A DNA stretch of 64,000 bases from Betaproteobacteria bacterium HGW-Betaproteobacteria-6 (GTDB lineage: Bacteria; Pseudomonadota; Gammaproteobacteria; Burkholderiales; Rhodocyclaceae): positions 3,983 to 67,982 of the forward strand of contig PHCF01000006.1 in the NCBI GenBank assembly GCA_002842145.1, written 5' to 3'. The translations under genes were made by a program, and so were the position numbers. The stretch's first letter is position 1. Every line of letters starts with the position of its first letter. The notes under the pieces were generated by a model, which was given only the letters and a program-made list of their open reading frames with translations, was not told the DNA's origin and ran no database searches. Below, piece after piece: positions 8,694 through 45,223 of this stretch.

Positions 8694-8828
8694 GAGCGCC
8701 TGACTGATGACTTATCGGTTGGTCCCGAAAAAGAACCAAGAAAAACCCTCCCCAATTTCTTGGGGAGGGAAAAATGCACGTCCCGGGGGAAGTAGTGCAA
8801 AGGAGGCTGCAATACCCTATCGATGGAT

Positions 8829-12538: not shown

Positions 12539-12540
12539 CT

Positions 12541-13897: not shown

Positions 13898-15064
13898 CTA
13901 CTCGGCCCCCAGTTGCAGGCCGTTGGGCTGGCGTTTTTCGATCGACCACTTGAGCAAGGCGGCCGAGCGGAAGATGCCGTGGGCGAATTTGCCGTAGGGC
14001 AGCGTCAGGAACAGGGCCATGACCACGCCCAGGTGAATGGCCAGCAGCAGGCCCATGGCCGAAGTGTCGCGCAGGGCGAGCAGGAGCAAGCCGGTCAGGC
14101 TGGTCAGCAGCAGCAGGGCAATGAAGCCGCGATCCATCGGTTTTTGCGCCGCATCGCCGTGCAAGGGATGACGCTTCAGGTTGAGCCAGAGCAGACCGGT
14201 CGGCCCGATCAGCAGACCGATGCCACCGGCGATGCCGAGCATGACGGGCAGACTGTTCAGCGCATAGGGGGCATGCAGGTCAAGCAGATAGTGATAGAGC
14301 GTTGCGACGCTGGTGGCCGCGAAGCAGAGCATGAAGCCGTAAAAGGTGAAGTGGTGAAAACGGCGACGCAACAAGGTATAGGCGTCGTCTTCGTTATTGC
14401 AGCCCTGACCGTGACCGCCGTCGAGATACTTCAGGCGGAGCACGTTGCCGGCCGCTTCGGCACTGGCCTCGCCACTGATTTCGCCCGGCGAGACCTCGCC
14501 CCAGAAACGCCGCACGCCGAGGCTCAATGCCAGGATCGCGTAGCCGAAAACCGCACCGAACATCAGCGCCAGCGTGTTGTGCGGGAAAATGGCGAAGAAA
14601 TTGCCGGCCAGCGGTTCATGCAGCAGACCGCCGGTGACTTGTACGGTCAACAGCAAAAAAAGCGCAAAACTGAAGGCTAGAGCCAGCGCCACGGTCAGTC
14701 CGTTATTTTTGTAGAGGCGGCCCAAAGCCCTGGGCCAGGCATAGCTGGAATAGGTTTCGCCGCGCACCTTGGCCATCGCCTGCGGCACATTGACCGCAAA
14801 CTCGTGTGGCGGTGCGTATTGGCAGGCATGCAGGCAGGCGCCGCAGTTGTGACAAAGATTGGCCAGGTAATGAATATCCGCCTGACCGAATTCCAGACGG
14901 CGGGTCATTGCCGGAAAGACGGCGCAGAAGCCCTCGCAATAGCGGCAGGCATTGCAGATCGACATGATGCGGCCGACTTCGGCCTCGTTCGCACTCGGGG
15001 AAAGCTCGCCCGTCGCCAGGCTGCGTGCCTCGCCGACCAGTTTTTCAAGCGCCTGCATGTTCAA
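13898..15064 (-). CDS. tcuB: Tricarballylate utilisation membrane Fe-S protein TcuB
   Basis: Two Cys clusters ([11 protein letters not shown]; [11 protein letters not shown]) followed by multiple TM helices. It is directly downstream of tcuA and overlaps it. Confidence 0.85.
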
Positions 15065-16472
15065 CTCCTTTTTCCAGCACGGCCTTGGCTGCCTGTGTGC
15101 CGGCGATGCGGCCGAATACGGTGCCGATGGTCATGCCGACCCCGGCGGTGTAGCCCTTGCCCAACACATTGCCGGCCATCATTTCACCGGCCACGAACAG
15201 GTTACGACTGGGCTTGCCGGCGAAATGCACGGCCGCCTCCTCGTTGATTTTCAAACCGAGGTAGGTGAAGGTAATGCCCGGTTTCAGCGGGTACGCATAG
15301 AACGGCGCCTTGTCGATCGGCAGGGCCCAATGGGTCTTGGCCGGTAACAGTCCTTCGGTATGACAGTCGTCGAGTACGGTGTGGTCAAAAGTACCGACCC
15401 GGCAGGCGGCGTTGTAATCGCTGACGGTCTGGACGAAAGTCGCTGCGTCGAGGCCGAGCTGACGGGCCAGGTCTTCCAGCGTGTCGGCCTGGGTGCCCGG
15501 AAAAACCGGCGGCATGAAACGTCCGACCGCTTTGGCATCAATGATCGAATAGCCGACCTGGCTGGGCTGCTGGGCGACCAGGCGGCCCCAGATGGCGTAG
15601 CGTTTGGGCCAGAAGTCCTCGCCCTCGTCATAGAAGCGCCGGGCAAATTTGTTGACCACGATACCGAGCGAAACGCAGTCGATACGGGTGCAGATACCGC
15701 CATCGTAAAGCGGTGCCCGGGCGTCGACGGCGACGCAATGCGACTGCGACGGATCGCCGATGAAATCGGCGCCGGCATTCATCATGGCCTTGAGCAACAC
15801 ACCCTGATTGAAACGCGTGCCGCGGATCGCGAAGTTGTCGGCCGGCCATTCGCCATCGGCGTTCTGCCCCCACGCTTCGCGCAGCCATTTGCGATTCGAT
15901 TCGAAGCCACCGGCTGCCATGACGCATGCCTTGGCAGCAATGCGTTGGCCGCCGACCCAGGCCGCTTGAAACTGGCCATCGACGATCTCCATACGGTCGA
16001 CCGGCGATTCGTAGCGAATTTGCACACCCAGCGCCTCGGCACTTCGATAGTAGGCATTGACCAGTGCCTTGCCGCCGCCCATGAAAAACGCGTTGGTCCG
16101 CGACAGTTGCAGCGTGCCGGACAACGAAGGCTGGAAATGCACGCCATGCTTGCGCATCCAGTCGCGGCACTGCGATGAGCCGCGGATGGCCAGGCGGGCC
16201 AGTTGTTCATTGGTATTGCCGCCCGTGACTTTGTACAGATCCTGCCAGAATTCTTCTTCCGGATAGGCTTCGGTCAACACATCCTGCGGCGCATCGTGCA
16301 TGCAGCGCAGGTTTCGGGTGTGGCTGGAATTGCCGCCGCGATACTCGCGCGGTGCAGCTTCCAGCAAGAGTACTGTGGCCCCCGCCTCGCGGGCCATCAG
16401 GGCCGCGCACAGCGCGGCATTGCCGCCGCCGATGATCAGTACATCGACGGCCGGTGAATTTATGTTACTCAT
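15045..16472 (-). CDS. tcuA: FAD-dependent tricarballylate dehydrogenase TcuA
   Basis: ATG 16472 preceded by [25 protein letters not shown] fold with succinate-dehydrogenase/fumarate-reductase flavoprotein-like body, paired with tcuB. Confidence 0.9.
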
Positions 16473-16560
16473 CGTTCGCTCCTCGTGAGCCTTGATTGGT
16501 TTCAGCAACGACACTATGCCGGTCTATGCTGACCACGCCCTAAGCCACAACGATATTCCG

Positions 16561-17496
16561 CTATCTCGAATCGAGATGGCTGTTTGCCACCCCTTGCCAG
16601 CGTCCATCGTCGACCATCTGCCGCACCAGCTGGCGCAAGACACCACGTGTCGCCAACGCCGCCGGCGACAACTCATCGTCGGACAGGCTGCATAGCAAGT
16701 TGCGCCGCGTTGTAGCTGCATCGGCGATTTCCACCCAGCGCAGGCGACTGCCGACCACCGGTTGGCGCGCCAGCGCTGACCAGGGCTGCAAGCTTGAAGC
16801 AATGCCCGCGTCGACCATATCCATCAGCACCGACAGCGAATCGACTTCGGCCACGATATTGGGTTGCAGCTTCAGCGCGGCAAACAAGGCATCGATCACC
16901 CGGCGCAAGCCGTGGTGATGGGTCGGCAGAACCAGTGGTAATTTACTGATGGCCGCCAGCGTCGACGGCAATTCGGGCGCCCCGGGCTGTTCGCGACGAA
17001 CCAGGAAAAGGCGCTCGTCAAGCAGGTGCTGAATCGTCCACCGCCTGGCCTGATCGGCGTCAAACAACACCGCCAGATCGATCTCGCGGGCATTGAGCAT
17101 CTGACCGAGATGGCCGGACATGCCTTCGACCAGATGGATGCGAATATCCGGATATTGTGACTGCATGGCCTGGAGCAGCGGCAGGCCAAGCACCCCGGCC
17201 GTGGTCGGCGCCAGCCCCAGCCCGACGACGCCGGAAAGACGCGATTGCTGGGCCGCCAGCATCGCCTGGTCGGCGTGACGCAAAGCCAGTTGGGCGTGCG
17301 ACAGAAAGGCGATACCGGCATCGGTCGCGATCACCCCGCTCGTCGTTCGCTGCAACAGACGCGTCGACAACTCACCTTCGAGACGCTGAATTTGCAAACT
17401 GACGGCCGACTGCGCGATGCCCAGATCGAGCGCCGCCTGACTGATGCTGCCCAGTTCGATGGTGCGAACCAGATAACGCAGTTGCCGTAGTTCCAT
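16561..17496 (-). CDS. LysR-family transcriptional regulator
   Basis: MELRQLRYLVRTIELGSISQAALDLGIAQSAVSLQIQRLE wHTH plus a full effector-binding domain. Confidence 0.85.
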   Translation of the reverse strand: MELRQLRYLVRTIELGSISQAALDLGIAQSAVSLQIQRLEGELSTRLLQRTTSGVIATDAGIAFLSHAQLALRHADQAMLAAQQSRLSGVVGLGLAPTTAGVLGLPLLQAMQSQYPDIRIHLVEGMSGHLGQMLNAREIDLAVLFDADQARRWTIQHLLDERLFLVRREQPGAPELPSTLAAISKLPLVLPTHHHGLRRVIDALFAALKLQPNIVAEVDSLSVLMDMVDAGIASSLQPWSALARQPVVGSRLRWVEIADAATTRRNLLCSLSDDELSPAALATRGVLRQLVRQMVDDGRWQGVANSHLDSR

Positions 17497-17508: not shown

Positions 17509-18864
17509 TTATCGTGAAGCCGCCGCCCGCCGCAAAACCTTGTCGACCATGACGCCGGCCTGACCGAGGTAATTGGCCGGATCGCAGAGCTTGGCCAACG
17601 CCGCGCGATCGAGGTGCGGGTTGATTTCCGGGTGCTCGGCCAGCAGATCGAGCAAAGGGCGCTGGCTCTTGATCGCTTCGCGGCACAGGTCATAGACCAG
17701 GTCGTGGGCGTATTCGCGGCCGATGTAGGGGCCAAGGCCCATCATCACGGCTTCCGACATGACCAGACCATTGGTCAGCTCAATGTTTTCCATCATCGCC
17801 GCCGGATCGACTTCCAGCCCTTCGAGAACGAAACGGGTCTGCTTCAGGGCGCCGGCCGTCAGGCAGAAGGCTTCCGGCAGCGCGATCCATTCGATTTCCC
17901 ACGGGCCGGTCGAGCGCTCGTGATCGGCAATCATCGCATCCATCAGGGCGGCGGAATGCTGGCGAACAACTGAGACGGCGGCATGAATGTAGCAGCTCGA
18001 AATCGGATTGCGCTTCTGCGGCATGGTGCTGCTTGAACCACGACCCGGGGCGAAGGGCTCGAAGACTTCAGCCACTTCGTGCTGCATCATCAGCTTGACG
18101 TCCATGGCGATCTTGCCGAGTGAACCGCCGACCAGGCCAAGGAAAGCGCCAACTTCGGCAATGGTGTCGCGCACCGTGTGCCAGGCGATGTCCGGCTGGG
18201 CCAGCCCCAGTTCGGCCATCAGGCCGGCCTGGGTTTCCATGGCGCCGGATTCAATCGAGGCCAAGGTGCCGCAGGCGCCGCCGAACTCACCCATCAGCAC
18301 ACGCGGACGCAGTTGCTGCAGACGTTCGCGATGGCGTTCCATGCCGGCCAGGATGGCTGCCGTCTTGAAGCCGAAAGTCACCGGAATGGCCTGTTGAAGA
18401 TTGCTTCGGCCAATCACCGGGGTGTCGCGATAACGCGTCGAGAGATTGATCAAGGCTGCACAGATGGCGTCGATTTCGGCGCCGACCAGATCAAGACCTT
18501 CGCGGATCTGCATGACGGTCGCGGTATCGGTGATGTCCTGCGTGGTGGCGCCCCAATGACAGAATTCGCCAAGACGGTCGCGGCACAGGGCGTTCAGTTG
18601 TGAGACCACGCCGAGTACCGGATAGCCGATGCGCTCGGTCTGGGCGCGCAGCTTGTCCATGTCGATTTTGTCGATGTCGCAGTTGCGCACGATTTCGTCG
18701 GCCGCTTCCTGCGGAATGATGCCGAGCCGGCCTTGCACGACGGCCAGCGCCCGTTCGATGTCGATGTATTTTTCGGTACGGTTGCGGTCGGACCAGACCT
18801 GACGCATGGCGTCGGTGCTGAAGATGTTGCCGAAAATACTAGAGTCAATGATGCTCGCGCCCAT
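17509..18864 (-). CDS. Class-II fumarase/aspartase superfamily lyase (adenylosuccinate lyase / 3-carboxymuconate cycloisomerase-like; candidate Tad1-like decarboxylase)
   Basis: Superfamily signature GSSSTMPQKRNP. N-terminus SSIFGNIFSTDAMRQVWSD... is typical of the PurB/PcaB branch. Confidence 0.8.
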   Translation of the reverse strand: MGASIIDSSIFGNIFSTDAMRQVWSDRNRTEKYIDIERALAVVQGRLGIIPQEAADEIVRNCDIDKIDMDKLRAQTERIGYPVLGVVSQLNALCRDRLGEFCHWGATTQDITDTATVMQIREGLDLVGAEIDAICAALINLSTRYRDTPVIGRSNLQQAIPVTFGFKTAAILAGMERHRERLQQLRPRVLMGEFGGACGTLASIESGAMETQAGLMAELGLAQPDIAWHTVRDTIAEVGAFLGLVGGSLGKIAMDVKLMMQHEVAEVFEPFAPGRGSSSTMPQKRNPISSCYIHAAVSVVRQHSAALMDAMIADHERSTGPWEIEWIALPEAFCLTAGALKQTRFVLEGLEVDPAAMMENIELTNGLVMSEAVMMGLGPYIGREYAHDLVYDLCREAIKSQRPLLDLLAEHPEINPHLDRAALAKLCDPANYLGQAGVMVDKVLRRAAASR

Positions 18865-18933
18865 GATGTTGTCTCCTGATTCAATGTGGGGAAGGATTCT
18901 GTTTTGCTGCGTTTTTGTTCAAATGCTGTCTTG

Positions 18934-19740
18934 CTACGTGCTTCGCGCGAGAATGGCTTCCGCCTTGAGGACGACCGGCCGATCCACCATTTTGCCGTCA
19001 AGCTGAACTGCGCCGGATGCGCTTGCGGCGGCCGCCAGAACTCTGTTGGCCCAAAGCACTTCCTGCTCGGTTGGCCGGCTCAGTTGCTCGATCAATGCGA
19101 CCTGCTTCGGATGAATACACATCTTTGCCGTGCAACCGAAGGCTCGGGCAAAGGCGTAATCCGCTTCGGTCCGGCTGAGGTCGTCGATATTGGGCGTGAC
19201 CCCGGCAATCGGCGGCGCCAGTTCGGCTGACCGGGAGGCGATGGCAATCTTGCTGTAGGGGTAAATCAGGCCGCGCTCGTCGCCCGAGAGGCTGAGATCG
19301 GCGGCGTAATCGAGCGTGCCGAAGGCTATGCGTTGAACGCCATTGGCCAGGGCGATTTGTTCAACGTTATTGACGCCGCGTGCCGTTTCCACCAGCGGCA
19401 GGACAGCCAGATCGCTGCACGTTGCGGCAATCGTCATCGCCACTTGCCCGGCGAATTCCGTCTTCGGCAACATAACCTGTTTGATGCCGGCCGCTTTGAT
19501 CATTGCCAGATCGTCGGCAAACCACGGTGACAAAGCATCGTTGATGCGCACCACCAGCCGTTCTGGCGCCGCGTTGGCCGTCGCGACCCATTCGGCGATA
19601 GCCTGCCGAGCGCGCTCTTTGTCCTCCGGGGAAACGGCATCCTCAAGATCGAGGATGATCGCCCCTGCGCCGCTGGCCAGCGCCTTGGCAAAGCGTTCAG
19701 GACGATTGCCAGGAACAAAGAGGTAGCTGACGGGCAACAT
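18934..19740 (-). CDS. HpcH/HpaI-CitE family acyl-CoA lyase ((S)-citramalyl-CoA lyase, Ccl-like)
   Basis: SYLFVPGNRPERFAKALASGAGAIILDLEDAV is the CitE-like N-terminal motif. 1-nt TGATG overlap with the upstream CoA-transferase gene. Confidence 0.8.
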   Translation of the reverse strand: MLPVSYLFVPGNRPERFAKALASGAGAIILDLEDAVSPEDKERARQAIAEWVATANAAPERLVVRINDALSPWFADDLAMIKAAGIKQVMLPKTEFAGQVAMTIAATCSDLAVLPLVETARGVNNVEQIALANGVQRIAFGTLDYAADLSLSGDERGLIYPYSKIAIASRSAELAPPIAGVTPNIDDLSRTEADYAFARAFGCTAKMCIHPKQVALIEQLSRPTEQEVLWANRVLAAAASASGAVQLDGKMVDRPVVLKAEAILARST

Positions 19741-20921
19741 CAGATGGCTCCGGCAGCGCGCAGTTCGGCGATCGCCTCGCTGGAATAACCGAGGCCGGTC
19801 AGAATGGCGTCAGTATGCTGGCCGAGGGCAGGCACCGCATCCATACGCGGTTCACATTCGCTCCACGAACCCGGAGGTAACAGGGCCGGTACCTTGCCGA
19901 CTGCGGTGTCGACTTCGCGCCAGCGGTTTCGCCCCTTGAGTTGCGGGTGTGCCCAGACATCATGCATGTCATTGAGGTGGGCGTTGGCGATCTGTGCGGC
20001 CTCCAGTCGCTCGACGACCTGTTCTGCGGTCAACCCGGAAAAAGCCTCAATAATGAGTTTGCGCACTTCGTCCCGGGCGGCACTGCGCTTGGAGTTGGAC
20101 GAGAAGCGTTCTTCCTTGCTCAGTTCCGGACGGAGCAATACCTTTTCGCAGAAAGCCGCCCATTCGCGTTCGTTCTGCAAGCCAAGCATGACGCTCTTGC
20201 CATCGCCGGCCGGGAACGGGCCATACGGGTAGATCGTGGCATGGCTGGCGCCGGCCCGACGTGGTGGCGAAGCGCCGTCGATGGCGTAATAGAGCGGGTA
20301 GTTCATCCACTCCACCAAGCTTTCCAGCATCGAGATGTCGAGATGCTGGCCACGACCGGTGATCTGCTTTTGCAGCAGCGCTGCCAGGATATTGCTGTAG
20401 GCGTACATGCCGGCCGAAATATCGGCGATCGACGGACCAGCCTTCGACGGCTCATCCTCGGTACCCGTCACCGAAACGAAACCGGATTCGCTCTGGATCA
20501 GCAGGTCGTAAGCCTTTTTGTCGCGGTAGGGGCCATCGTTGCCGTAGCCGGAAATGTCGCAGACGATGATCTCCGGCTTGATTGCCGACAAGGCTTCGTA
20601 GGACAGACCGAGCCGGGCGGCGGCGCCGGGGGCCAGATTCTGAACCAGAATGTCGGCCTCTTCGGCAACCAGTCGCTGCAAAATCTTCTGGGCTTCCGGA
20701 TGCTTGACGTCGAGGGTCAGGCTTTCCTTGGAGCGATTGGTCCACACAAAGTGCGAGGCCAGACCATGCACGCGCTCATCGTAGCCGCGGGCGAAGTCGC
20801 CCACACCAGGGCGTTCGATCTTGATCACGCGAGCCCCGAGGTCAGCCAACTGACGCGTGGCGAACGGGCCGGCAATGGCGTGTTCCAGGGTGATGACGGT
20901 AATACCTTCCAACGGTCTCAT
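19740..20921 (-). CDS. Family III (CaiB/BaiF) CoA-transferase (succinyl-CoA:itaconate CoA-transferase, Ict-like)
   Basis: MRPLEGITVITLEHAIAGPFATRQLADLGARVIKIERPG is the family III signature N-terminus. Confidence 0.8.
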   Translation of the reverse strand: MRPLEGITVITLEHAIAGPFATRQLADLGARVIKIERPGVGDFARGYDERVHGLASHFVWTNRSKESLTLDVKHPEAQKILQRLVAEEADILVQNLAPGAAARLGLSYEALSAIKPEIIVCDISGYGNDGPYRDKKAYDLLIQSESGFVSVTGTEDEPSKAGPSIADISAGMYAYSNILAALLQKQITGRGQHLDISMLESLVEWMNYPLYYAIDGASPPRRAGASHATIYPYGPFPAGDGKSVMLGLQNEREWAAFCEKVLLRPELSKEERFSSNSKRSAARDEVRKLIIEAFSGLTAEQVVERLEAAQIANAHLNDMHDVWAHPQLKGRNRWREVDTAVGKVPALLPPGSWSECEPRMDAVPALGQHTDAILTGLGYSSEAIAELRAAGAI

Positions 20922-20931
20922 GCGGCTTTCC

Positions 20932-21777
20932 TTATTTCAGCACCACGGTGGCGTCCATGGTCAGCCAGCCTTCGTGGTCTTCCGCCCATAGATGGATGGT
21001 CTTGCCATCGGCCGAGGGCGTGCCATTGACGAAGAAATGATTGATGTCGAAAGTCGGCCGAATGGCGCGGAATTCGAACTTCGCCACCTCGGCATCCGGC
21101 ATCTGATGGCGGAGCAGATCGAGCAGCAGCGTGGCGATCATCGGGCCGTGCACAATCAGGCCGGGATAGCCTTCGACTTCGGTCACGTATTTGCGGTCGT
21201 AATGAATGCGGTGGCCGTTGAAAGTCAGCGCCGAGTAACGAAAGAGCAGAACGTCGTCCGGCACCCACTTGGTTCGCCAGACGGGATCCGGGTAGGTGGC
21301 CTTGGGCGGAGGTGCGACGTCGTTCGGACCGGCCGCCTCGCGATAGACGATGTCGTGGAACTCGGTCAGGGCGATGGCGCTTTCGCCGGCACGGCGCAGT
21401 TCGTGGCGGACCTTGACGAAAACCAGCGGACCGGTGCGGCCGCTCTTTTCGGTGACGTCATGGATGGTCGACGTACGGGTCACTGTTTCGCCGATATGCA
21501 GGGGAGCATGGAATTCGAACTGGCTACCCGCCCACATCCGGCGGGGCAACGGCACCGGCGGCAGGAAACCGCCACGCTTGGCATGGCCGTCAGGGCCGAT
21601 TTCGGATTGGCGGTGCATCGGCAGGAAATACAGCCAGTGCCACAGTGCCGGCAGCGGCGTGCCGTTGGCCGGGCGCTCGGCCGGGCGGTCGAAGGTAGCA
21701 GACAGCGCGGCGTAAGGGGTGGCCGTGAACAGGTCGGTGACTTCTTCCGAACGGCCGATCCATGTCTTGAGATTCAT
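20932..21777 (-). CDS. Double hot-dog MaoC/FAS1-like dehydratase (itaconyl-CoA / mesaconyl-C4-CoA hydratase-like)
   Basis: ATG 21777 preceded by AGGAG. MNLKTWIGRSEEVTDLF...ALWHWLYFLP...FNGHRIHYD...PGLIVHGP resembles the Pseudomonas-type Ich family. Confidence 0.7.
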   Translation of the reverse strand: MNLKTWIGRSEEVTDLFTATPYAALSATFDRPAERPANGTPLPALWHWLYFLPMHRQSEIGPDGHAKRGGFLPPVPLPRRMWAGSQFEFHAPLHIGETVTRTSTIHDVTEKSGRTGPLVFVKVRHELRRAGESAIALTEFHDIVYREAAGPNDVAPPPKATYPDPVWRTKWVPDDVLLFRYSALTFNGHRIHYDRKYVTEVEGYPGLIVHGPMIATLLLDLLRHQMPDAEVAKFEFRAIRPTFDINHFFVNGTPSADGKTIHLWAEDHEGWLTMDATVVLK

Positions 21778-21851
21778 TGAGGTGACTCCTGGATTCATCT
21801 TGTTTGCAAAGGCTTGAAAGCAGCGCCCTGTACCAGCGGCGCTGGAATATG

Positions 21852-23135
21852 TCAGAGCATGCCCAGGGAGCGGGGCAACCAGAGCGACAGGCCTGGCCAG
21901 TAGGTAACCAGACCAAGGAAACAAAGCATCGACAGCAACCATGGCCAGACGGCTACGGTCAGTTCGGTGATGCCCATTTTGGTGATGCCCGATGCGACGT
22001 AGAGATTCAGGCCAACTGGCGGGTGGCACATGCCGACTTCCATATTCACCACCATCAGGATGCCGAAGTGAATCGGATGAACACCGAGCGCCACGGCCAC
22101 CGGGAAAAGCAGGGGGGCGAAGATCAGGACAATGGAGGAAGGTTCCATGAAGTTGCCGGCCAACAGCAGGATGACATTGACTGCCAAAAGGAAGGTGATG
22201 ACGCCAAAGCCTTGGTTCAGCATCCAGTCGGCCAATGTCTGCGGTATGCCTTCATTGGTCATGATGAAGGAGAAAAGGACCGCATTGGTGATGATGTAGA
22301 GCAGCATCGCCGACATGTTGGCTGAATTGAGCAGCACCTTTGGCACGTCTTTCAGGCCCATATCCTTGTAAATGAATATTGCGCAGATAAAGGCGTAGAC
22401 CGCTGACATGGCCGCCGCTTCGGTCGGTGTAAAGATGCCGCTGTAAATGCCGCCCATCACGACAAAAATCAGCAACAGTCCCCAAACCGAGCCACGGAAA
22501 GCAACCCAGCGCTCCCCCCAGGATGCCTTTGGCTGACGTGGGTAATTGTATTTACGAGCGCGGTACCACGTGACGCCACCGAGGGTCAGTGCCAGGGCCA
22601 GCCCCGGAATAACCCCCGCCATGAAGAGTGCACCGACTGAGGTATTGGTTGCGACCGAGAACATCACCATACAGATCGACGGCGGGATCAGGATACCCAG
22701 CGCCCCAGACGTAGAGATAACGCCCGCCCCAAAACGATTGGGAAACCCGGCCTTGACCATGGCTGGCAAGAGGATCGAGCCGATCGCCACGACGGTCGCC
22801 GGACTGGATCCCGAAACAGCGGCAAACAGCGCACAAGCAACCACCCCAGCCAGACCCAGGCCGCCGTACCAGTGGCCGACCATCGCCGAGGCAAAGTTGA
22901 TCATTCGTTTCGCGACGCCACCGTGCGTCAGAAAGTTACCGGCCACGATAAAAAATGGAATAGCCATGATCTCGAACTTCTCAATGCCGGTGAAGAGCTT
23001 GAGGGCTACGGATTCAAGCGGCACATCGGTCATGCCGAACAAGAAGGTCATTACCGTCAGGCCGAGGGAAATCGATATCGGCATGCCGGTCAGCATGAGG
23101 ACGGCCAAGAGACCGAAAATTACAAGTGCGCTCAT
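21852..23135 (-). CDS. dctM: TRAP transporter large permease DctM
   Basis: 427 aa, 12+ TM helices. MSALVIFGLLAVLMLTGMPISISLGL is a typical DctM start. Overlaps the dctQ stop. Confidence 0.9.
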   Translation of the reverse strand: MSALVIFGLLAVLMLTGMPISISLGLTVMTFLFGMTDVPLESVALKLFTGIEKFEIMAIPFFIVAGNFLTHGGVAKRMINFASAMVGHWYGGLGLAGVVACALFAAVSGSSPATVVAIGSILLPAMVKAGFPNRFGAGVISTSGALGILIPPSICMVMFSVATNTSVGALFMAGVIPGLALALTLGGVTWYRARKYNYPRQPKASWGERWVAFRGSVWGLLLIFVVMGGIYSGIFTPTEAAAMSAVYAFICAIFIYKDMGLKDVPKVLLNSANMSAMLLYIITNAVLFSFIMTNEGIPQTLADWMLNQGFGVITFLLAVNVILLLAGNFMEPSSIVLIFAPLLFPVAVALGVHPIHFGILMVVNMEVGMCHPPVGLNLYVASGITKMGITELTVAVWPWLLSMLCFLGLVTYWPGLSLWLPRSLGML

Positions 23136-23872
23136 TTCGGTTCTCCTCCGAGATCTTCTTTGCGGCGTTCTTCTGCTACGGTTTCCTCGCTGATACGACG
23201 GTCATCGCCGATCATGACGTGCTTGGTGTCATGCGGATGCAGGTTGTCGTCCATCGAGTACACGTCGATATCCACCGGTAAGACTGCGTCCTCCAACCCA
23301 TCAACATGGCCGTGATCATGGTGGGGAAGTTCGCCCGTCCGAATGAACGAAACGCAGACCTGCAGGAAGCGGAAGCACATCAGCGATGAGCCAAGCGGAA
23401 CCGCGCTGTAAACCAACCAGGTTTGCCACTCAAGATCAGGCGTCGCTGGCCCTTCGATAAGGCCGTCAAGACTCAGGCCAAAGAAATGGCGTAAACCGTA
23501 ATTTGCCCCGTTTTCCCAGACAAAGTGGCCGCCCATATAAGCCACAATGCCAGTAAATAAAGCGCCGGCCAGCAGGCCGAAGACAATGAACTTGGAGCGA
23601 AGCGTATCGCTCATGCGATTGATCAATACATCAACGCCGACGTGGATGCCGGTACGGACGCCATAAGCGGCACCGAATTTGGCCATCCAGACAAAGAGAA
23701 TGATGGTCAGTTCCTGGGCCCAGCTCATGTCGAGGGAAAGCAGCCAGTCCTGTAAAACCGGAATGGCGTAGCCAGACATATAGCGATGAATGACAGCGGC
23801 AAAAGTGACGAGTGTCGCCACGCCAATCAGCAGTGTGATAATCAGCTCTTCCAACCGATCAAGTATTCTCAT
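23132..23872 (-). CDS. dctQ: TRAP transporter small permease DctQ with a roughly 65-aa His/Asp/Glu-rich C-terminal tail
   Basis: ATG 23872 preceded by GAGGA. Four TM helices, then ...GELPHHDHGHVDGLEDAVLPVDIDVYSMDDNLHPHDTKH...EERRKEDLGGEPK. Confidence 0.8.
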   Translation of the reverse strand: MRILDRLEELIITLLIGVATLVTFAAVIHRYMSGYAIPVLQDWLLSLDMSWAQELTIILFVWMAKFGAAYGVRTGIHVGVDVLINRMSDTLRSKFIVFGLLAGALFTGIVAYMGGHFVWENGANYGLRHFFGLSLDGLIEGPATPDLEWQTWLVYSAVPLGSSLMCFRFLQVCVSFIRTGELPHHDHGHVDGLEDAVLPVDIDVYSMDDNLHPHDTKHVMIGDDRRISEETVAEERRKEDLGGEPK

Positions 23873-23937
23873 GTTTTCCTCACTGAGAAATGATTGGGCT
23901 GGCATTACGCGCTTGCAATGCCAGCCAATGGTTCTGG

Positions 23938-24933
23938 TTACTTGGTCTGGCCGGTTTCCTCGCGGATTGCGGCAATCAAATCCTTGCCGACGCGCGGGGA
24001 CAGCTCATTTTGGACACCGATCATGGCATTAACCCAGAGCGCCTTTTCTGCAGCGGTCGGTGTGTAGATCGTTGTTTTTCCCGAAGCCTTCATGGCAGCC
24101 ACAGCCTTTGCTTCGTCTTCCTCGGCGACCTTGTCGTTATAGGCTGTCGAATCTTCGATCGCGCCCTTGACCGCCGTCTTGATATCGGCCGGAAGCTTGT
24201 CCCAGAACGCCTTGTTAATGACGACAACATAGCCGCTGTAGGTGTGACGCGTTAGCGTCACATGCTTTTGCACTTCGTATTGCTTCTGGGTATAGAGATT
24301 GGCCAGATTTCCATCGGCGCCGTCAACGACCCCGGTCTGCAGCGCTTGGTAGACTTCCGAGAAAGCCATCGTTTGCGGGATAGCACCAATTGACCTGATG
24401 ATGGCCTGATTGACTTTCGATGAATTGATACGGATTTTTTGACCCTTGGCATCATCCGGCACATGCATCGGCTTGTTCGAACTCAGCACCCGGAAACCCG
24501 CATCCCAATAAGTCAAACCAATCATGCCGCGAGGCTCGAGTTTTTTCAGAAGCGAGGCACCAATCGGCCCGCGTGTCACACGATGCAGTGCCGCCTCGTC
24601 CGGGAAAATATAGGGCAGGTCAAAAGCCTCAAATTCCTTGACGCCCAGGGGACCAAATTTCCCCGCGACCGGTGCCAGCATCTGGACGCTTCCCAATTGC
24701 AAGGCTTCCAACTCTTCCTTGTCTTTGTAAAGGGTGGAGTTGGCAAACACCTCGACCTTGACTCGGCCATTGGTGCGCTTTTCTAGCTGCTGTTTGAAGT
24801 ATTCGGCCGCTTGGCCTTTTGGCGTGTCGATCGCGGCAACATGCGAAAATTTGATGACAATGGGTTCCTGGGCATAGGCAAAGCCTGACAGGGCAATGCC
24901 AAGAGCAGCGGTAAGTGTAAGAATCGGTTTCAT
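23938..24933 (-). CDS. dctP: TRAP transporter substrate-binding protein DctP
   Basis: Signal peptide MKPILTLTAALGIALSGFAYA followed by the DctP-family fold (KFSHVAA.DTPKGQAAEYF...). Confidence 0.9.
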   Translation of the reverse strand: MKPILTLTAALGIALSGFAYAQEPIVIKFSHVAAIDTPKGQAAEYFKQQLEKRTNGRVKVEVFANSTLYKDKEELEALQLGSVQMLAPVAGKFGPLGVKEFEAFDLPYIFPDEAALHRVTRGPIGASLLKKLEPRGMIGLTYWDAGFRVLSSNKPMHVPDDAKGQKIRINSSKVNQAIIRSIGAIPQTMAFSEVYQALQTGVVDGADGNLANLYTQKQYEVQKHVTLTRHTYSGYVVVINKAFWDKLPADIKTAVKGAIEDSTAYNDKVAEEDEAKAVAAMKASGKTTIYTPTAAEKALWVNAMIGVQNELSPRVGKDLIAAIREETGQTK

Positions 24934-24998
24934 GTGGTGTCTCCTCTATTTTGAAAAACGGTACCGGAAAGGCCGGCCGCATCATTGGTGCAATCAGG

Positions 24999-26105
24999 TC
25001 AAGACAAGATTGCTTCTTGAATCAATCCAAGGCAGTGGTCAGCAATAAATACGTCGCCGACCAGCAATGGACGAGCTGAGGTCAGTAGCGCAGCGCCGAC
25101 CAGTTTTGGAATCCCCGTCCATGGATCGGGGGACGAGATGATGTTGCAAGCCATTTTGCCGCTGGGGTGTTCAATCACGATTTGGTGCGGCGTGTTTTGA
25201 TTAAGGACTGAAATCTCTTCAGCAATTGTGTCCGGGGTTTGGCACGCTGCGGCCAAAGCCATCGCGCCGGTGGCCGCGAAAACGGGGTGGCAGTTCGATG
25301 GAACAAAATAACGCGAGGCAATGGCACCGCCTTCACGTGGCGGCGCAATGATGGCGATCTTCGGAATGCCAAGGCCTGGCGCATCCGAGAGTCCCATCAA
25401 GCGCGCACCGGCACAACGTATCTCTTCAAGCGCCTTCAGAAAAACTGGATCATCGTCAAGCTCTTGCTTGCTCTCGTAACCTGTTTTTCCAAACGACTTG
25501 GCGTTGACCAGCACGATGGGAATGGCGAAATCCATGCAAGTCACCGGAATACCGAGAATGACGTCGCGCGGCGAACCAGTCGGTAGCAAACGACCCGTTT
25601 TTGTCCCAGTAGGGTCAAAAAATTGCAATCCGATTGGGGCGCATTTGTGGGGCACGCCGTCCACAGCAAAGTTGCCGCTGTACGTGACCTTGCCACCCGG
25701 CGTTTGAACCGTCGCTTCGACGATTTTCTGGCTATTGGTGTTGAGAATTCTGACCTTTGTAACCGGACTGGATGCTTTAACAAGGCCATATTCAATGGCG
25801 AATGGAGCGACGCCGGCCAGCATGTTGCCACTATTTGGCAGAACGTCCACCAGATCACGGGCCACCGAAACTTGAGCAAACAGATATTCGACATCAGCGT
25901 CGGGTTGTGACGACGGCGCTACAATTACAACTTTGCTGCTGTGATCGTTACCGCCTCCCATGCCATCAATTTGCCGGGCATCAGGCGACCCCATGGCAGC
26001 GAGGAGCATGCGATCACGATCCGCCGGGTTGGATGGCAAATCCTTCGCGAAGAAGAACAGGCCTTTCGACGAACCACCTCGCATCAGAACGCAGGGAATG
26101 CGCAA
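24999..26105 (-). CDS. PrpF-family isomerase, copy 2
   Basis: Paralogue of 10374-11468 (RIPCVLMRGGSSKGLFFFAKDLPSNPADRDRMLLAAMGSPD...NSGNMLAGVAPFA). Best start is TTG 26105, 6 nt after GAGGAG. The track ORF N-terminus is rejected. Confidence 0.8.
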   Translation of the reverse strand: MRIPCVLMRGGSSKGLFFFAKDLPSNPADRDRMLLAAMGSPDARQIDGMGGGNDHSSKVVIVAPSSQPDADVEYLFAQVSVARDLVDVLPNSGNMLAGVAPFAIEYGLVKASSPVTKVRILNTNSQKIVEATVQTPGGKVTYSGNFAVDGVPHKCAPIGLQFFDPTGTKTGRLLPTGSPRDVILGIPVTCMDFAIPIVLVNAKSFGKTGYESKQELDDDPVFLKALEEIRCAGARLMGLSDAPGLGIPKIAIIAPPREGGAIASRYFVPSNCHPVFAATGAMALAAACQTPDTIAEEISVLNQNTPHQIVIEHPSGKMACNIISSPDPWTGIPKLVGAALLTSARPLLVGDVFIADHCLGLIQEAILS

Positions 26106-26175
26106 CTTTGTCTCCTCATTGGTTTTAACGTTTTCTTGAATTGAATAATAGGCAATTCGTCGCTTGACTTGAAAT

Positions 26176-26198
26176 GCAATAAATTTCAGATTTATTGC
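26176..26198. promoter_or_regulatory. Perfect 9-bp inverted repeat GCAATAAAT-N5-ATTTATTGC in the divergent PrpF-2/LysR promoter region
   Basis: Seen directly. Lies between the TTG of PrpF-2 (26105) and the ATG of LysR (26306). Its core is shared with 10311-10329. Confidence 0.4.
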
Positions 26199-26305
26199 GA
26201 TGTGCGCATATATCAAGAGCGTACAATCGGGGTGGTCGGCGCAATAGCGCCAGACATAAAAAGCCATTGCCAGTTACCGATGGCTGTTTCACGGAGAGAA
26301 GACGG

Positions 26306-27247
26306 ATGAAGATCGACTTCGATGGAATTCAGGCGTTTGTGGTGATCGCGGAATTAGGTGGCTTTAACAAGGCTGCCGAGCATCTTCATGTCACCCAAAC
26401 CGCATTGACTCGCCGGATACAAAAACTCGAGGCTTATCTTGATTTGAAGCTTCTCGACCGTACAACTCGGTACGTTGAATTGACGGCAGTGGGACGCGAA
26501 TTTCTGCCGCAAGCCAGGGCAATCGTCGGAGAGATGACGGCTGCAGTGAGTCGCCTCAAAGACATGTCAAAAAATTCCAGGGGTAATTTCACGCTCGCCT
26601 GTGTGCCCACGATGGCGGGCCAAATCCTGCCGAAGCTGATGCGTGAATATGCCAATACTTGTCCACGAAACAGGATTCGCCTGCTCGATGCCACTTCATA
26701 CGAAGTACGAGATGCTGTACTCAACAGTCAGGCCGAGCTAGGCATCGGAATTCATGGAGAGCAGCATCCGGATCTGAACGAAACGCCTTTGTTCGATGAT
26801 CCACTGATGTTTTTTTGCCGCGAATCAAATCCACTGAGCGACAGGGAGTCAGTAACTTGGTCTGACATGAGCGGGGCCGATCTCATCGTCGTCAGCAATC
26901 TGACTGCCACCCGAGTTTTCATGGACTATCAACTCGCCAAGCGCGGAATCAGCCTGAGTGGTGCTTATGAAGTCCAGCACCATGCCACAGCGATCAGCCT
27001 GGTTGCAGCTGGGGTCGGTTGTGCCATTCTTCCGGCATCAACGTTCCAGGAAGGCGATAGACCTGGCGTTCGCAGAATCCCGTTGATCAGTCCGGTTGTA
27101 AAACGCAAGGTCATCCTGATCACAAGAAAGAACAATACCCTCTCGCCAGCAGCAGAGGCATTTTTCGAATTAATCAAGAAAACGCATTTCGGCCTCACTG
27201 CGCCAACCGGAATACGGGCTACCCGAGATGGCCTTTTCGACGAGTAG
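26306..27247 (+). CDS. LysR-family transcriptional regulator (divergent from the catabolic array)
   Basis: MKIDFDGIQAFVVIAELGGFNKAAEHLHVTQTALTRRIQKLE wHTH plus an effector domain. Confidence 0.85.
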   Translation: MKIDFDGIQAFVVIAELGGFNKAAEHLHVTQTALTRRIQKLEAYLDLKLLDRTTRYVELTAVGREFLPQARAIVGEMTAAVSRLKDMSKNSRGNFTLACVPTMAGQILPKLMREYANTCPRNRIRLLDATSYEVRDAVLNSQAELGIGIHGEQHPDLNETPLFDDPLMFFCRESNPLSDRESVTWSDMSGADLIVVSNLTATRVFMDYQLAKRGISLSGAYEVQHHATAISLVAAGVGCAILPASTFQEGDRPGVRRIPLISPVVKRKVILITRKNNTLSPAAEAFFELIKKTHFGLTAPTGIRATRDGLFDE

Positions 27248-27420
27248 ACAATCGCATTGATCGACCCAGGTTGCTGCTGCTTAAGAAAAAACCGAGCACA
27301 AGGTCGCTTACTGCCAATAGCCGAGTGCTTCCTGGTAGCGTCGGCTCACCATGAGCTTGGAATGCTGGCTATCTGATCCATCAAATGTCTGCTCAAGGAG
27401 TGCATGTAACCTCGTCATTG

Positions 27421-30400
27421 TCAGGTATCTATGTACTTGTCTATGTCGGAAAGCCCGTCAACCACGACTTTCAGTTTCGCCAAGACTTCTGGTAAAAGCC
27501 GATCACTGCCTTCGGCTGAAGCATTTTTCGCTTCCACCTCCAGCGCAAAAGCAGCTTCGCCTAACTCGGTTGCGCCAATAGAGTTTGCCGCCCCTTTCAG
27601 GGAGTGCGCCAGCAGCCGTTGGGTCGCCCAATCTTCTGCTTTCCGGGCAGCCTCATACTGCCGCCCGAAGTCATTACCGTGCCGGTCCCGGAACTTCTTT
27701 AGAATACGTAGCAGCATCGGCATCCGGCCGCCCAGAACCGATAAACCAATCGCCATCTCAATACCAGGAAAGTCCGGAACATTCTGAGTCGGCCGCTCTG
27801 CCACAACCACCTCCGGTGACACCTCAAATGCTGTTTCAGGCACGGCAACAAGATCGGGAAAGCATTGCGACAGGCGATCATGAAGCACTTCCAGGCTGAT
27901 TGGCTTGGCGGCATGGGCATTCATGCCCACATCCAGACATTCTTGCTGATCGGCAAGTGTGGCATGCGCTGTCAGGGCAATGATCGGTAATTCCCGATAT
28001 TCAGCCTGCGAGCGAAGTCGCCGCGTTGCCTCGTAGCCGTCCATGACCGGCATTTGGCAATCCATCAGAATCACATCCGGCCGTTTTTCGGCAACCGCAG
28101 CAAGCGCCTCGACACCATTCGAAGCCGCTCGCGCAGAGAGGCCTACGGTTTCTAAAAGCCCAAGGATGACCTCTTGATTAACTTCTACGTCTTCCACCAG
28201 CAGAATATCCAGATGGCGGAAACGGGCCCACTGGCTTGCAACTGCCGTCCGCTGTTCCAGAGCCGGTTTTTCCCGACTCGAGATACCAAGACAGCGACCA
28301 AGCTCAACGTAAAGATGACGTGCGCTGACAGGCTTTGCGAGTAACCCATCAAGCTCATGAGCAACGTCATCGAGGCCGGTGTTATGGCTGTAAGAGGTGA
28401 CTAGCAACATGGGCGGAACGGGTAGTTGACGATTGGCAAATGCCTTGCGCAAGCGACGAATCGTTTCGATCCCATCCGTTTCCGGCATTTGCCAATCGCT
28501 AAGGCAGGCCAGATAGTTGGGCGGCACATCAACATTGACGTGCTCAAGGGCTTCCGTCGCATCACGCGCGGTGACGACATCGAGTCCGAGATGTCTGATC
28601 AATCGGCTGAGAATACGCAACGCAATCGGATTGTCGTCAATCAGCAACACTGGCTGGTGGGCATGTTCAGCCAGGGCTTCAGCAAACTTGACGATGTTCA
28701 ACCTGCTGCCATCTTTTGAGACAGCGAGTTTTACAGTGAAATGGAAGGTACTCCCATTACCAACTTCGCTCTCTACCCAAATCTTGCCATGCATCACCTC
28801 GACCAGATGCCGGCATATGGCGAGCCCGAGACCGGTGCCGCCGAATTTTCGTGTTGTCGAGGTGTCCGCCTGAGAAAACGGCTGGAAGAGATTGGCAATC
28901 TGGTCTTCCGTCATGCCAATGCCTTGGTCACTGACCGAGAAGTGCAATTTCACTTCTTCTGCCTCGACTTCTTGTCCTCTGACCTGAACGACCACATTGC
29001 CGCCGGCAGAGAACTTCAGCGCATTTGATACCAGATTGGTGAGAATCTGGGACAAACGCAGCGGGTCTCCCACCAGAACCCGGCTATTCTCTTCAAAGTC
29101 ATAGGCCAGTTCGATGCCTTGTCTCTCGGCTCGAAGTGCGACGACCCCCGAGAGTTGATCAAAGACTTCCTCGAGAGTGAACGGGATGCATTCGACGTCG
29201 AGTTTTCCCGATTCGATCTTGGAGAAATCCAATATGTCGTTAATGATTCGCAACAGGGAGTCCGAGGCTGTTTTGATTTTCTCTACATAGTTCCTTTGCC
29301 GGTTGCTCAACTCCGTAGCCAAAGCCAAATCAGCCATCCCTGTAATGGCATTCATTGGCGTTCGGATCTCATGCGACATGTTGGCCAGAAAGGCGCTTTT
29401 GGCCATATTGGCAGTTTCCGCCGACTGAAGCGCCGATTTAAGCGCCTGGGTACGGTTCTCAACCGTCTCTTCAAGGAGACGGTTGGACTCTTCCTGCATC
29501 TCCAAGGCTTTTAGAATGGCCGCATTCGATTGATTCAGCCTTCGCTCAATTTTTCTGGTCAGAAGGATCGTCAACCAACCCACGACCCAGAAGACAATAC
29601 CGCAAGCCACCAAGGCTTGTTTGATCGCTAGAGAATATTCAGACTGGCCTTGGGTCAATTCCTGGAAAAGCGTTATCGACCCGTGACCGTCGTGAAAATC
29701 TTGAGTCTCTGCAAAATAGGCCTTTCCATTGGCGCTGAAATAATGGTCTTTAGTGGTCAGGAAATCCGGTTCCATATGAATGGTGCTTATGGAATGACCG
29801 CCGTCCTTTCCAAATCTGTCATCAAAGTCTTTTATGAGATTTGAACCAACGGTGGAGTCGATATCCTTTAATTCCAGAAAGCTTCGATCGCCAAAACGAA
29901 CCCTCATGAAGACGGGGGCGGTGAATTTCGATTTATCGAGATAAAGCTCCTGATCAAGGTGCTTTGAAAATTCAAGTTCCGTAGCTTCCCGATTGTTGGA
30001 TTTCCAGATGCGGATATCTTCGTCAAAATGGTTGGCCAAATACTGGAGGCGGACCATGAAGGTTTCCAGTTCCTTCCGCTGCCCTATTTCTTTTGCGGTG
30101 GCCCCAATCTCGTAGATATAGCCTGCGCAAGCCAGGACAAGAAGGGGGATGACCCACATCAGAATGCTGTTGCGAAGATCGTCGGGACGTTGAAGAAGTT
30201 CTTTCGGATCGACAACCTGTTCAACACCGGCGTCGGTCGCTAGCGCTTTGGTAATTCGGTTGGTGGAAAAGCCAAACAAGGCATAGCCAAAACACCATCC
30301 CGAAACTGCTGCAAAGATGTTGAGTAGCGAAAATATGAAGATGACCTGTTTCAGGAGCCCCTCTTCGAGAAAGGGCATGCCTGGCGCTGAGATGGCAGCA

Positions 30401-30483
30401 AGCGTTACGCCCAGAAAGAAGCGAACGCTCCGATCAAGAAAAGATTGATTGCAGGTTAAAGGCAAGCGTCTCAATGAAAGCAT
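27421..30483 (-). CDS. Hybrid sensor histidine kinase (membrane sensor - HisKA - HATPase - REC - REC - Hpt)
   Basis: H-box [16 protein letters not shown] boxes NLVSNALKF and DQGIGM...GGTGLGLAI. Two receiver domains (LLIDDNP..., [11 protein letters not shown]...DCQMPVMDG). C-terminal Hpt ([14 protein letters not shown]). Confidence 0.85.
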
Positions 30484-45021: not shown

Positions 45022-45223
45022 GGTCGGGCGTCCAGATACTTGAAAACCGGACATTATAAAGGTTTAAGACGGGGCTTCGGGCATCGCTTTGGTGCCAATA
45101 TTTTTGCTGTCGAATGGCATAAATGCTTGCTGGGCGGGCGTAGAATGGGCTTGCTGCGTCGCAACAAACAACAGGAGGGAAGTCTCCTCCGCGGGCGGCG
45201 CGCTTTTCAGGGCTGGACCGAAA

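Follow-up and report, generated by a model that had tools for sequence, protein, structure and literature searches.

A candidate bacterial route from C6 tricarboxylates to itaconate centred on a Tad1-clade lyase

Can a bacterium break down aconitate by first converting it to itaconate? This question is raised by a gene block on a 64,000-nucleotide stretch of the genome of Betaproteobacteria bacterium HGW-Betaproteobacteria-6 (Rhodocyclaceae; contig PHCF01000006.1, positions 3,983 to 67,982), which we refer to as the window and number from its first letter. The block encodes a lyase of 451 amino acids together with a hydratase, a CoA-transferase and an acyl-CoA lyase resembling the itaconate-degrading trio Ich, Ict and Ccl, two PrpF-family isomerases, importers, and the tricarballylate utilization proteins TcuA and TcuB. 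A first-pass annotation had proposed a route from aconitate through itaconate to citramalyl-CoA, and every step of it that could be tested on sequence (the clade of the lyase and the trio) came out in favor of this proposal; the adjacent tcuAB, absent from that annotation, adds to the case. We consider it likely that the locus specifies, as judged from sequence, a two-module system for the catabolism of the C6 tricarboxylates trans-aconitate, cis-aconitate and tricarballylate via itaconate rather than by entry into the tricarboxylic acid (TCA) cycle. Most likely, a soil or water bacterium thereby breaks down the plant acids trans-aconitate and tricarballylate. The argument is built on the family and clade identities of the proteins, on the conservation of active-site residues and on conserved gene linkage, all of which were observed directly.

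The lyase and its relation to Tad1

The lyase gene is the last of the genes at 17509-26105, after those for the importer and the trio. As the first-pass annotation had stated, its product belongs to the fumarase/aspartase superfamily, with Pfam matches to Lyase_1 (133 bits) and ADSL_C (81 bits) and with a GSSxxPxKxN "SS loop" that reads GSSSTMPQKRNP. Using phmmer against solved structures, we found that the nearest relative is Tad1 of Ustilago maydis (9h4e; 536 bits, E 4e-160), which bears out the description of the lyase as Tad1-like. The matches that follow are an unnamed "fumarate lyase" (3c8t; 454 bits), two 3-carboxy-cis,cis-muconate cycloisomerases (CMLE), 1re5 and 1q5n (366 and 346 bits), CreD (250 bits) and PurB (at most 164 bits). 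The alignment to Tad1 is gap-free, and 247 of 439 residues (56%) are identical. Mutagenesis of Tad1 identified Q152, S320, S321, R360, T362, W365 and W369 as needed for decarboxylation (PMC11880804), and all seven are kept in the window lyase as Q109, S277, S278, R317, T319, W322 and W326. We aligned 114 sequences, most of them representing clusters of the superfamily. At the S320 position, the Tad1 clade has Ser throughout, all five CMLE representatives have Gly, and only 3% of the other superfamily representatives have Ser; at the T362 position, four of the five CMLE representatives have Leu or Ile. Among 80 bacterial orthologs, the segment HERSTGPWEIEW and the SS loop hardly vary (79 and 77 of the 80 are identical).

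The first-pass annotation had suggested a phylogeny of the lyase. We computed a neighbor-joining tree from Kimura distances (450 columns, 100 bootstraps). In this tree, which is based on distances only, a single clade comprised the window group, Tad1 and two further proteins (P0122 and P0126) in 100 of 100 bootstraps, set apart from the CMLE clades. Both further proteins are fungal: the gene of one lies among eukaryotic genes, and that of the other is next to an MFS gene and a PrpF gene split by an intron. On a fungal-looking metagenomic contig (L085, 3532-10159), the order of the Ustilago tad1-itp1-adi1 cluster recurs in a Tad1-like gene, an MFS gene that is split, and a PrpF gene that is split by an intron. 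The lyase encoded there is only 54% identical to Tad1; clusters of this kind may therefore exist in other fungi.

Public records label orthologs of the window lyase "pcaB", "3-carboxy-cis,cis-muconate cycloisomerase" or adenylosuccinate lyase family protein, and among NCBIfam models the lyase matches that of the cycloisomerase PRK09053 best. Taken at face value, these labels would make the lyase a genuine PcaB or PurB and the block one for aromatic ring-cleavage products. However, the lyase scores below every curated cut-off, with 489.3 bits vs 595 for PRK09053 (NF006554), 347.6 vs 355.75 for the PcaB model TIGR02426, and 288.1 vs 326.2 for the PurB model TIGR00928. In control comparisons, true Tad1 likewise failed the two PcaB models (464 and 326 bits), and the CMLE proteins P0139 (666 and 444 bits) and P0149 (602 and 393 bits) passed them. 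The tree and the Ser and Thr residues described above point the same way, and no pca genes (pcaC, pcaD, pcaG, pcaH or others) were seen among the annotated neighbors in the window or in annotated relatives. An aromatic ring-cleavage role is thus exceedingly improbable. The first-pass annotation had named firm clustering with PurB or PcaB as evidence against its proposal; cut-offs, tree and residues are all contrary to such clustering. A PcaB or PurB identity of the lyase was ruled out on these three grounds.

Based on these comparisons of sequence, the lyase is a member of the Tad1 clade and not a PcaB or PurB, and we propose that it would convert trans-aconitate to itaconate and CO2. Tad1 itself has been described as the first decarboxylase of its superfamily, in a 2025 structural paper that barely mentions bacteria and calls this type of trans-aconitate decarboxylase unique to Ustilago (PMC11880804).

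The block and the proteins encoded with the lyase

The first-pass annotation had described nine co-directional, tightly spaced genes at 17509-26105. The genes are indeed co-directional, intact and tightly packed on the minus strand, with neighbors that overlap by as much as 4 bases or are separated by up to 77, but they number eight. The coordinates are right for these eight genes; a ninth co-directional gene, for a LysR regulator, lies beyond them at 16561-17496, and the co-directional run continues much further, from 26105 down to a terminator at 8746-8769, the sole strong one between 8 and 27.5 kb. The block therefore also holds tcuA, tcuB, an MFS gene, a 2-hydroxyacid dehydrogenase gene, a second PrpF gene and a gene for an OprD-type porin. 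The features, from high to low coordinates, are as follows.

26306-27247, plus strand: LysR-family regulator lysR2, divergent from the block, with HTH_1 and LysR_substrate domains; the open reading frame opens at 26195, and the ATG start at 26306 is inferred
26176-26198, no strand: palindrome GCAATAAA-N7-TTTATTGC, candidate LysR operator, the lone match in the window
24999-26105, minus strand: PrpF1, Ser-type, proposed aconitate isomerase (Pfam PrpF, 347 bits; OMA_tautomer, 434 bits vs cut-off 440)
23938-24933, minus strand: DctP, TRAP solute-binding subunit (TIGR00787, 306 bits vs cut-off 175), with an N-terminal signal peptide visible in the translation
23132-23905, minus strand: DctQ, TRAP small membrane subunit (Pfam DctQ, 72 bits, residues 31-189 of 257)
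21852-23135, minus strand: DctM, TRAP large permease (TIGR00786, 514 bits vs cut-off 268)
20932-21774, minus strand: itaconyl-CoA hydratase homolog, Ich (PDB 8khg, E 3.6e-72, 50% identity over 254 residues)
19740-20921, minus strand: family III CoA-transferase, proposed Ict (Pfam CoA_transf_3, 361 bits)
18934-19740, minus strand: CitE/HpcH-family acyl-CoA lyase, proposed (S)-citramalyl-CoA lyase, Ccl (PDB 8khl/9nzb, E 1.9e-50, 45% identity)
17509-18864, minus strand: Tad1-clade lyase, 451 amino acids, proposed trans-aconitate decarboxylase (Tad1 9h4e, E 4e-160, 56% identity)
16561-17496, minus strand: LysR-family regulator lysR1, in the position of TcuR, with HTH_1 and LysR_substrate domains
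15045-16514, minus strand: TcuA, FAD-dependent tricarballylate dehydrogenase (NF006130, 765.5 bits vs cut-off 369)
13898-15064, minus strand: TcuB, tricarballylate utilization 4Fe-4S protein (NF011607, 704.6 bits vs cut-off 524)
12541-13866, minus strand: MFS_3 (EntS-like) transporter, variable insert (Pfam MFS_3, 199 bits)
11585-12550, minus strand: D-isomer-specific 2-hydroxyacid dehydrogenase, variable insert (Pfam 2-Hacid_dh_C, 150 bits)
10374-11468, minus strand: PrpF2, Cys-type, linked to tcuAB (OMA_tautomer, 499.5 bits vs cut-off 440; Pfam PrpF, 394 bits)
8829-10199, minus strand: OprD-family outer-membrane porin (Pfam OprD, 92 bits)
8746-8769, minus strand: strong intrinsic terminator that ends the co-directional block (10-bp stem with 7 G-C pairs, then a T run)

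Profile matches (Pfam and NCBIfam) recovered the PrpF-family gene and the DctPQM importer as well as the MaoC hydratase, family III CoA-transferase and CitE-like lyase that had been listed previously. The start of prpF1 at 26105 is likewise as annotated, a TTG codon six bases past the ribosome-binding site GAGGAG. DctP, DctQ and DctM are encoded together and each scores above the cut-off of its model, consistent with a full TRAP transporter. Past its Pfam match, DctQ has a C-terminal tail of ~65 amino acids that is rich in Asp, Glu and His.

Among the proteins of the trio, the hydratase is of the Ich type, since its best match among solved structures is named "Itaconyl-CoA hydratase"; the sole other solved match, 8huc, has a near-equal score and is named "MaoC_dehydrat_N domain-containing protein". 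For the CitE-like lyase, the nearest solved relatives (8khl and 9nzb) carry the name "probable acyl-CoA lyase beta chain", under which PA0883, the citramalyl-CoA lyase of Pseudomonas, is listed in PAO1; they presumably represent PA0883. The CoA-transferase clearly belongs to family III, and its nearest solved relative is human SUGCT, a likeness that does not settle its substrate. We propose that it acts as Ict based on its place between Ich and Ccl and on the ict2-ich2 genes of Cupriavidus necator (PMC13491972). Because homologs of Ich and Ccl adjoin the lyase, itaconate as the product of the lyase would match the substrate of its neighbors.

Downstream of the lyase, tcuA is preceded by a LysR gene, and both TcuA and TcuB score far above the equivalog cut-offs. 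TcuA is the enzyme that oxidizes tricarballylate to cis-aconitate (Lewis and Escalante-Semerena 2006, cited in PMC2606687). With tcuA and tcuB adjacent, the neighbors of the lyase would thus make the compound that the proposed route needs. The lone MFS gene of the block is of the EntS-like MFS_3 type, and the TRAP system is present. The genes for MFS_3 and the D-2-hydroxyacid dehydrogenase sit between tcuB and prpF2, where the insert varies from 0.4 to 2.4 kb across related genomes.

The PrpF family includes the proven aconitate isomerases SoPrpF, TarA, TbrA and Adi1 (PMC4720413, PMC5690661, PMC11495376). The nearest solved relatives of PrpF1 are E. coli YbhH and LigU/GalD. PrpF1 and PrpF2 are 53% identical, their genes bracket the pathway genes, and both recur with the module; a PrpF2-type paralog comes after tcuB or the lyase in many loci. 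For both, the best model is that of 4-oxalomesaconate tautomerase (OMA_tautomer), with scores of which that of PrpF2 exceeds the cut-off. The catalytic Lys (K73 of SoPrpF) was seen by eye in PrpF1 (HSSKVVIV) and PrpF2 (LTSKVVIV). PrpF1 has the motif PNSGN for PNCGN, i.e. Ser at the position of C107 of SoPrpF, and the same Ser is found in 104 of its 120 closest homologs. PrpF2 (PNCGN) and the PrpF encoded on the fungal L085 contig retain Cys. The first-pass annotation had drawn a parallel to Adi1 of Ustilago. The family is shared, but the L085 protein, which we used as a stand-in for U. maydis Adi1, is only 33-34% identical to both window PrpFs; no Adi1 structure was found in the PDB search. 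Judged by these identities, the isomerase is, unlike the lyase in relation to Tad1, no close ortholog of its fungal partner.

Conservation, regulation and the proposed route

A scan with one genome per species gave at least 579 relatives of the lyase, the best 80 of which are 79-99% identical to it. The first-pass annotation had called for a survey of co-occurrence, and in 48 well-flanked loci the neighbors of the lyase do recur: the hydratase gene in 36, the CoA-transferase gene in 31, the CitE-like lyase gene in 26, a PrpF gene in 24, and tcuA in 20. In 42 of the 48, tcuA or at least one gene of the trio is located no more than 10 kb from the lyase gene. Because these neighbors are recurrent, the arrangement is not due to chance. 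The module was found in Rhodocyclales (Aromatoleum, Azoarcus, Thauera, Denitromonas), Burkholderiales and Granulosicoccus, and also on an Azospirillum replicon and a Bradyrhizobium plasmid; a maoC-coaT-lyase arrangement that corresponds to operon2 of C. necator is present in C. oxalaticus. On one metagenomic contig (L084), a LysR gene and a divergent PrpF-DctA-Ich-Ict-Ccl-lyase-TcuA-TcuB-PrpF series form a single run. The importer slot, filled by TRAP in the window, holds TctA/TctC tricarboxylate transporters in Thauera and in locus L083, and DctA elsewhere. Aromatoleum evansii KB740 carries two complete copies of the cluster on separate contigs (L009 and L013), and both lyases are 90% identical to that of the window.

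The linkage is specific to this clade, since the next-closest lyases (50-54% identity, with a GASSTMPQK loop and without the S320 residue) are encoded in a GntR-lyase-symporter context. Examples of that sister clade are L087 (7001-9758, Agrobacterium vitis plasmid) and L088 (6096-11277, Paraburkholderia plasmid), in which the lyase gene is accompanied by genes for a GntR regulator and a dicarboxylate symporter and, in some cases, for a class II fumarase; one record labels the lyase pcaB, the other "adenylosuccinate lyase family protein". This looks like another unassigned system.

The presence of Ich and Ccl homologs could also be explained by a plain operon for uptake and degradation of itaconate or C5 dicarboxylates, in which the lyase and PrpF are accessory or detoxifying passengers and the tcu genes form an unrelated neighboring operon. 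DctA dicarboxylate carriers in some relatives fit this explanation, as does the observation that deletion of operon2 (ict2-ich2) in C. necator slows itaconate consumption (PMC13491972, 2026). However, no protein of the module is more conserved than the lyase (79-99% identity vs 50-91% for the CitE-like lyase), which keeps its place after the trio across several orders. In four genomes (L029, L030, L034 and L045), a tcuA-tcuB-dctP-lyase arrangement occurs with the trio absent nearby, which ties the lyase to the product of TcuAB independently of the trio. In addition, itaconate, methylsuccinate, mesaconate and citramalate all fail to induce the promoter of C. necator operon2 (PMC13491972), a behavior that fits an upstream inducer such as aconitate, and Pseudomonas-type itaconate clusters carry other accessories (acyl-CoA dehydrogenase, MmgE/PrpD) but lack a lyase of this kind (PMC12290011). 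We regard a plain itaconate operon as quite improbable.

A second alternative keeps the lyase in the Tad1 clade and assigns it another unsaturated or substituted acid, with the trio handling the resulting C5/C6 dicarboxylate rather than itaconate. Candidates are methyl- or homo-aconitate, a 4-oxalomesaconate-like tricarboxylate, or hydration/elimination on mesaconate or citraconate. The identity to Tad1 is short of near-identity, the two PrpF paralogs score best on the 4-oxalomesaconate tautomerase model and, being two, hint at more than one unsaturated substrate, and Ict-type transferases and clusters also take methylsuccinate, citramalate and mesaconate (PMC12290011; PMC13491972). Against this alternative, all seven tested Tad1 residues are kept, including the clade-specific S320 and T362; bona fide tcuAB, with cis-aconitate as product, is repeatedly adjacent and sometimes directly by the lyase; TctA tricarboxylate importers occupy the same slot as the TRAP system; and the nearest solved relative of the hydratase is specifically an itaconyl-CoA hydratase. 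Another substrate is therefore unlikely, though it is the alternative to which we give most weight.

With regard to regulation, the perfect palindrome between the divergent lysR2 and prpF1 is unique in the window, and together with a flanking TATGCG it is kept in 11 orthologous regions between lysR2 and prpF1 that come from other genera. Based on this conservation, it is probably a LysR operator, and lysR2 probably activates the operon from prpF1 to the tad1-like gene through it. In 18 of the 48 well-flanked loci, as well as in L083 and L084, a lysR2 gene diverges from a PrpF gene that heads the module. lysR1, which lies between the lyase gene and tcuA in 11 of the 48, probably regulates tcuAB. 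A promoter scan gave 4 matches vs 7.9 expected from shuffled sequence, i.e. nothing above expectation.

From these observations, we infer the substrates and products, the direction of flux, the inducer, the task of each PrpF and the physiological rationale as follows. The acids would cross the outer membrane, perhaps by the OprD-type porin, and the inner membrane by the DctPQM TRAP system. Tricarballylate would be converted to cis-aconitate by TcuA and TcuB, and cis- and trans-aconitate would be interconverted by a PrpF-family isomerase. The Tad1-clade lyase would then irreversibly decarboxylate trans-aconitate to itaconate and CO2, the family III CoA-transferase would form itaconyl-CoA, the Ich homolog would hydrate it to (S)-citramalyl-CoA, and the Ccl homolog would cleave the latter to pyruvate and acetyl-CoA. 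In our reasoning, the irreversible decarboxylation would pull flux, because the equilibrium of the isomerase favors trans-aconitate, which inhibits aconitase. The route would also give acetyl-CoA directly.

Itaconate might instead be an end product that serves as an antimicrobial or chelator, as in Ustilago, with Ict, Ich and Ccl for self-protection or recycling. PrpF and Tad1 suffice for itaconate production in yeast (PMC4720413), and the block includes an exporter-type MFS gene (MFS_3, EntS-like). This MFS gene is a variable insert, however, and the genes putatively share a transcript with those for importers (a periplasmic binding protein, TctC or DctA) and for a complete degradation trio, and are linked to the catabolic dehydrogenase genes tcuAB and a porin gene. 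These observations make an end-product role barely credible.

Several points weigh against the catabolic route as proposed. The best NCBIfam model for the CitE-like lyase is RipC_Ccl, with 149 bits far under the cut-off of 375; the model is named for RipC and presumably has a Yersinia-type sequence basis. The CoA-transferase is tied to Pseudomonas Ict (PA0882) by its position alone, and about one quarter of the related loci have no trio beside the lyase. The degree of identity to Tad1 would leave room for another substrate of the lyase. For the isomerases, the link to Adi1 is at the level of the family only because of the low identity of the fungal PrpF, and the proposed route offers no explanation for keeping two PrpF paralogs. 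The C107S variant of SoPrpF had no detectable activity in vitro (PMC5690661), and PrpF1 has Ser at just this position. Moreover, Tad1 has its optimum at acidic pH (PMC11880804), which is not obviously compatible with the bacterial cytoplasm. Finally, a bacterium that has aconitase does not strictly need the route.

In the literature, we found no description of a bacterial Tad1 or of a catabolic route from aconitate to itaconate, in agreement with the first-pass annotation, which did not know of this route as an established bacterial pathway; subscription-only work lay outside this search, and an earlier report is possible. The locus probably combines known enzyme families in an undescribed bacterial route that includes the first bacterial members of the Tad1 clade. 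We lean, with little more than even confidence, towards the broader proposal that several hundred bacterial species use the route, that Tad1 arose from a bacterial catabolic enzyme by horizontal transfer, and that the Ser-type PrpF is a new functional subtype. Many of the species in view are associated with plant roots (Azoarcus, Aromatoleum, Azospirillum, Bradyrhizobium, Variovorax).

If confirmed, the route would be a new catabolic pathway for the abundant plant and rumen acids trans-aconitate and tricarballylate, and would give trans-aconitate decarboxylase its first bacterial and first catabolic role. [quoted passage not shown] It would also correct widespread labels (pcaB and adenylosuccinate lyase family protein for the lyase, 4-oxalomesaconate tautomerase for PrpF), hint at the origin of the fungal itaconate genes, and make available, for the production of itaconate, a large number of bacterial Tad1 homologs whose pH optimum may be neutral. 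Isocitrate lyase is inhibited by itaconate. Some bacteria would, if the route is confirmed, make this inhibitor internally, which bears on the evolution of itaconate tolerance.

Around the head of the block, the G+C content drops from ~0.61 to 0.52-0.55 within 22000-30000, a segment that covers prpF1, dctP, dctQ, the divergent LysR gene and a gene for a hybrid sensor histidine kinase of 1020 amino acids (27421-30483). This segment may be mosaic or acquired DNA. From 31064 to 62000, the window resembles ordinary chromosome, with genes for a pyridoxal phosphate-dependent enzyme of Cys/Met metabolism, an MnmC-like domain pair, a class II (Asp/Lys/Asn-type) tRNA synthetase, a RecJ-type nuclease, a large pyruvate:ferredoxin oxidoreductase (45089-48850), a chemotaxis receptor and a ComEC-type competence protein.

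Comparison with known systems

PcaB/CMLE of the protocatechuate pathway shares with the window lyase the branch of the superfamily, the fold, and the Arg and two Trp of the HER...W...W segment. The window lyase differs in failing the PcaB cut-offs, in having Ser rather than Gly at S320 and Thr at T362, in belonging to a separate clade, and in having no pca neighbors among those seen.

The tar system of Bacillus velezensis (TarR, TarA, TarB) resembles the window block in combining a PrpF-family isomerase with a trans-aconitate importer in an inducible operon. Unlike the proposed route, it stops at the conversion of trans- to cis-aconitate and has neither a decarboxylase nor CoA-dependent steps (PMC11495376).

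The itaconate clusters of P. aeruginosa and C. necator share with the window homologs of Ich and, putatively, of Ccl (50% and 45% identical to solved structures), a CoA-transferase gene between them in the order ich...ict-ccl, and an associated LysR gene. In contrast to these clusters, the block has no methylsuccinyl-CoA dehydrogenase, MmgE/PrpD methylsuccinate isomerase or glyoxalase-like gene, and instead has the Tad1-clade lyase, PrpF genes, importers and tcuAB.

With Adi1/Tad1 of Ustilago maydis, the window shares a lyase of the Tad1 clade and a PrpF-family isomerase encoded alongside. The two systems differ in that the window has a bacterial host, a catabolic setting, an operon with importers and the trio, and a linkage to tcuAB, whereas in Ustilago the cluster includes genes for an exporter, a P450 and a mitochondrial carrier, and itaconate accumulates. 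They also differ in their isomerases, the window PrpFs being ~33-34% identical to the fungal cluster PrpF and PrpF1 having Ser for the catalytic Cys.

Finally, the tcuRABC systems of Salmonella and Acinetobacter are matched in the window by TcuA and TcuB, both over the equivalog cut-offs, and by a LysR gene upstream in the same orientation. No TcuC-type carrier is apparent in the block, which has the TRAP system, the porin and the MFS_3 gene instead. Whereas the known system sends cis-aconitate straight to the TCA cycle, the window module should divert aconitate to itaconate.

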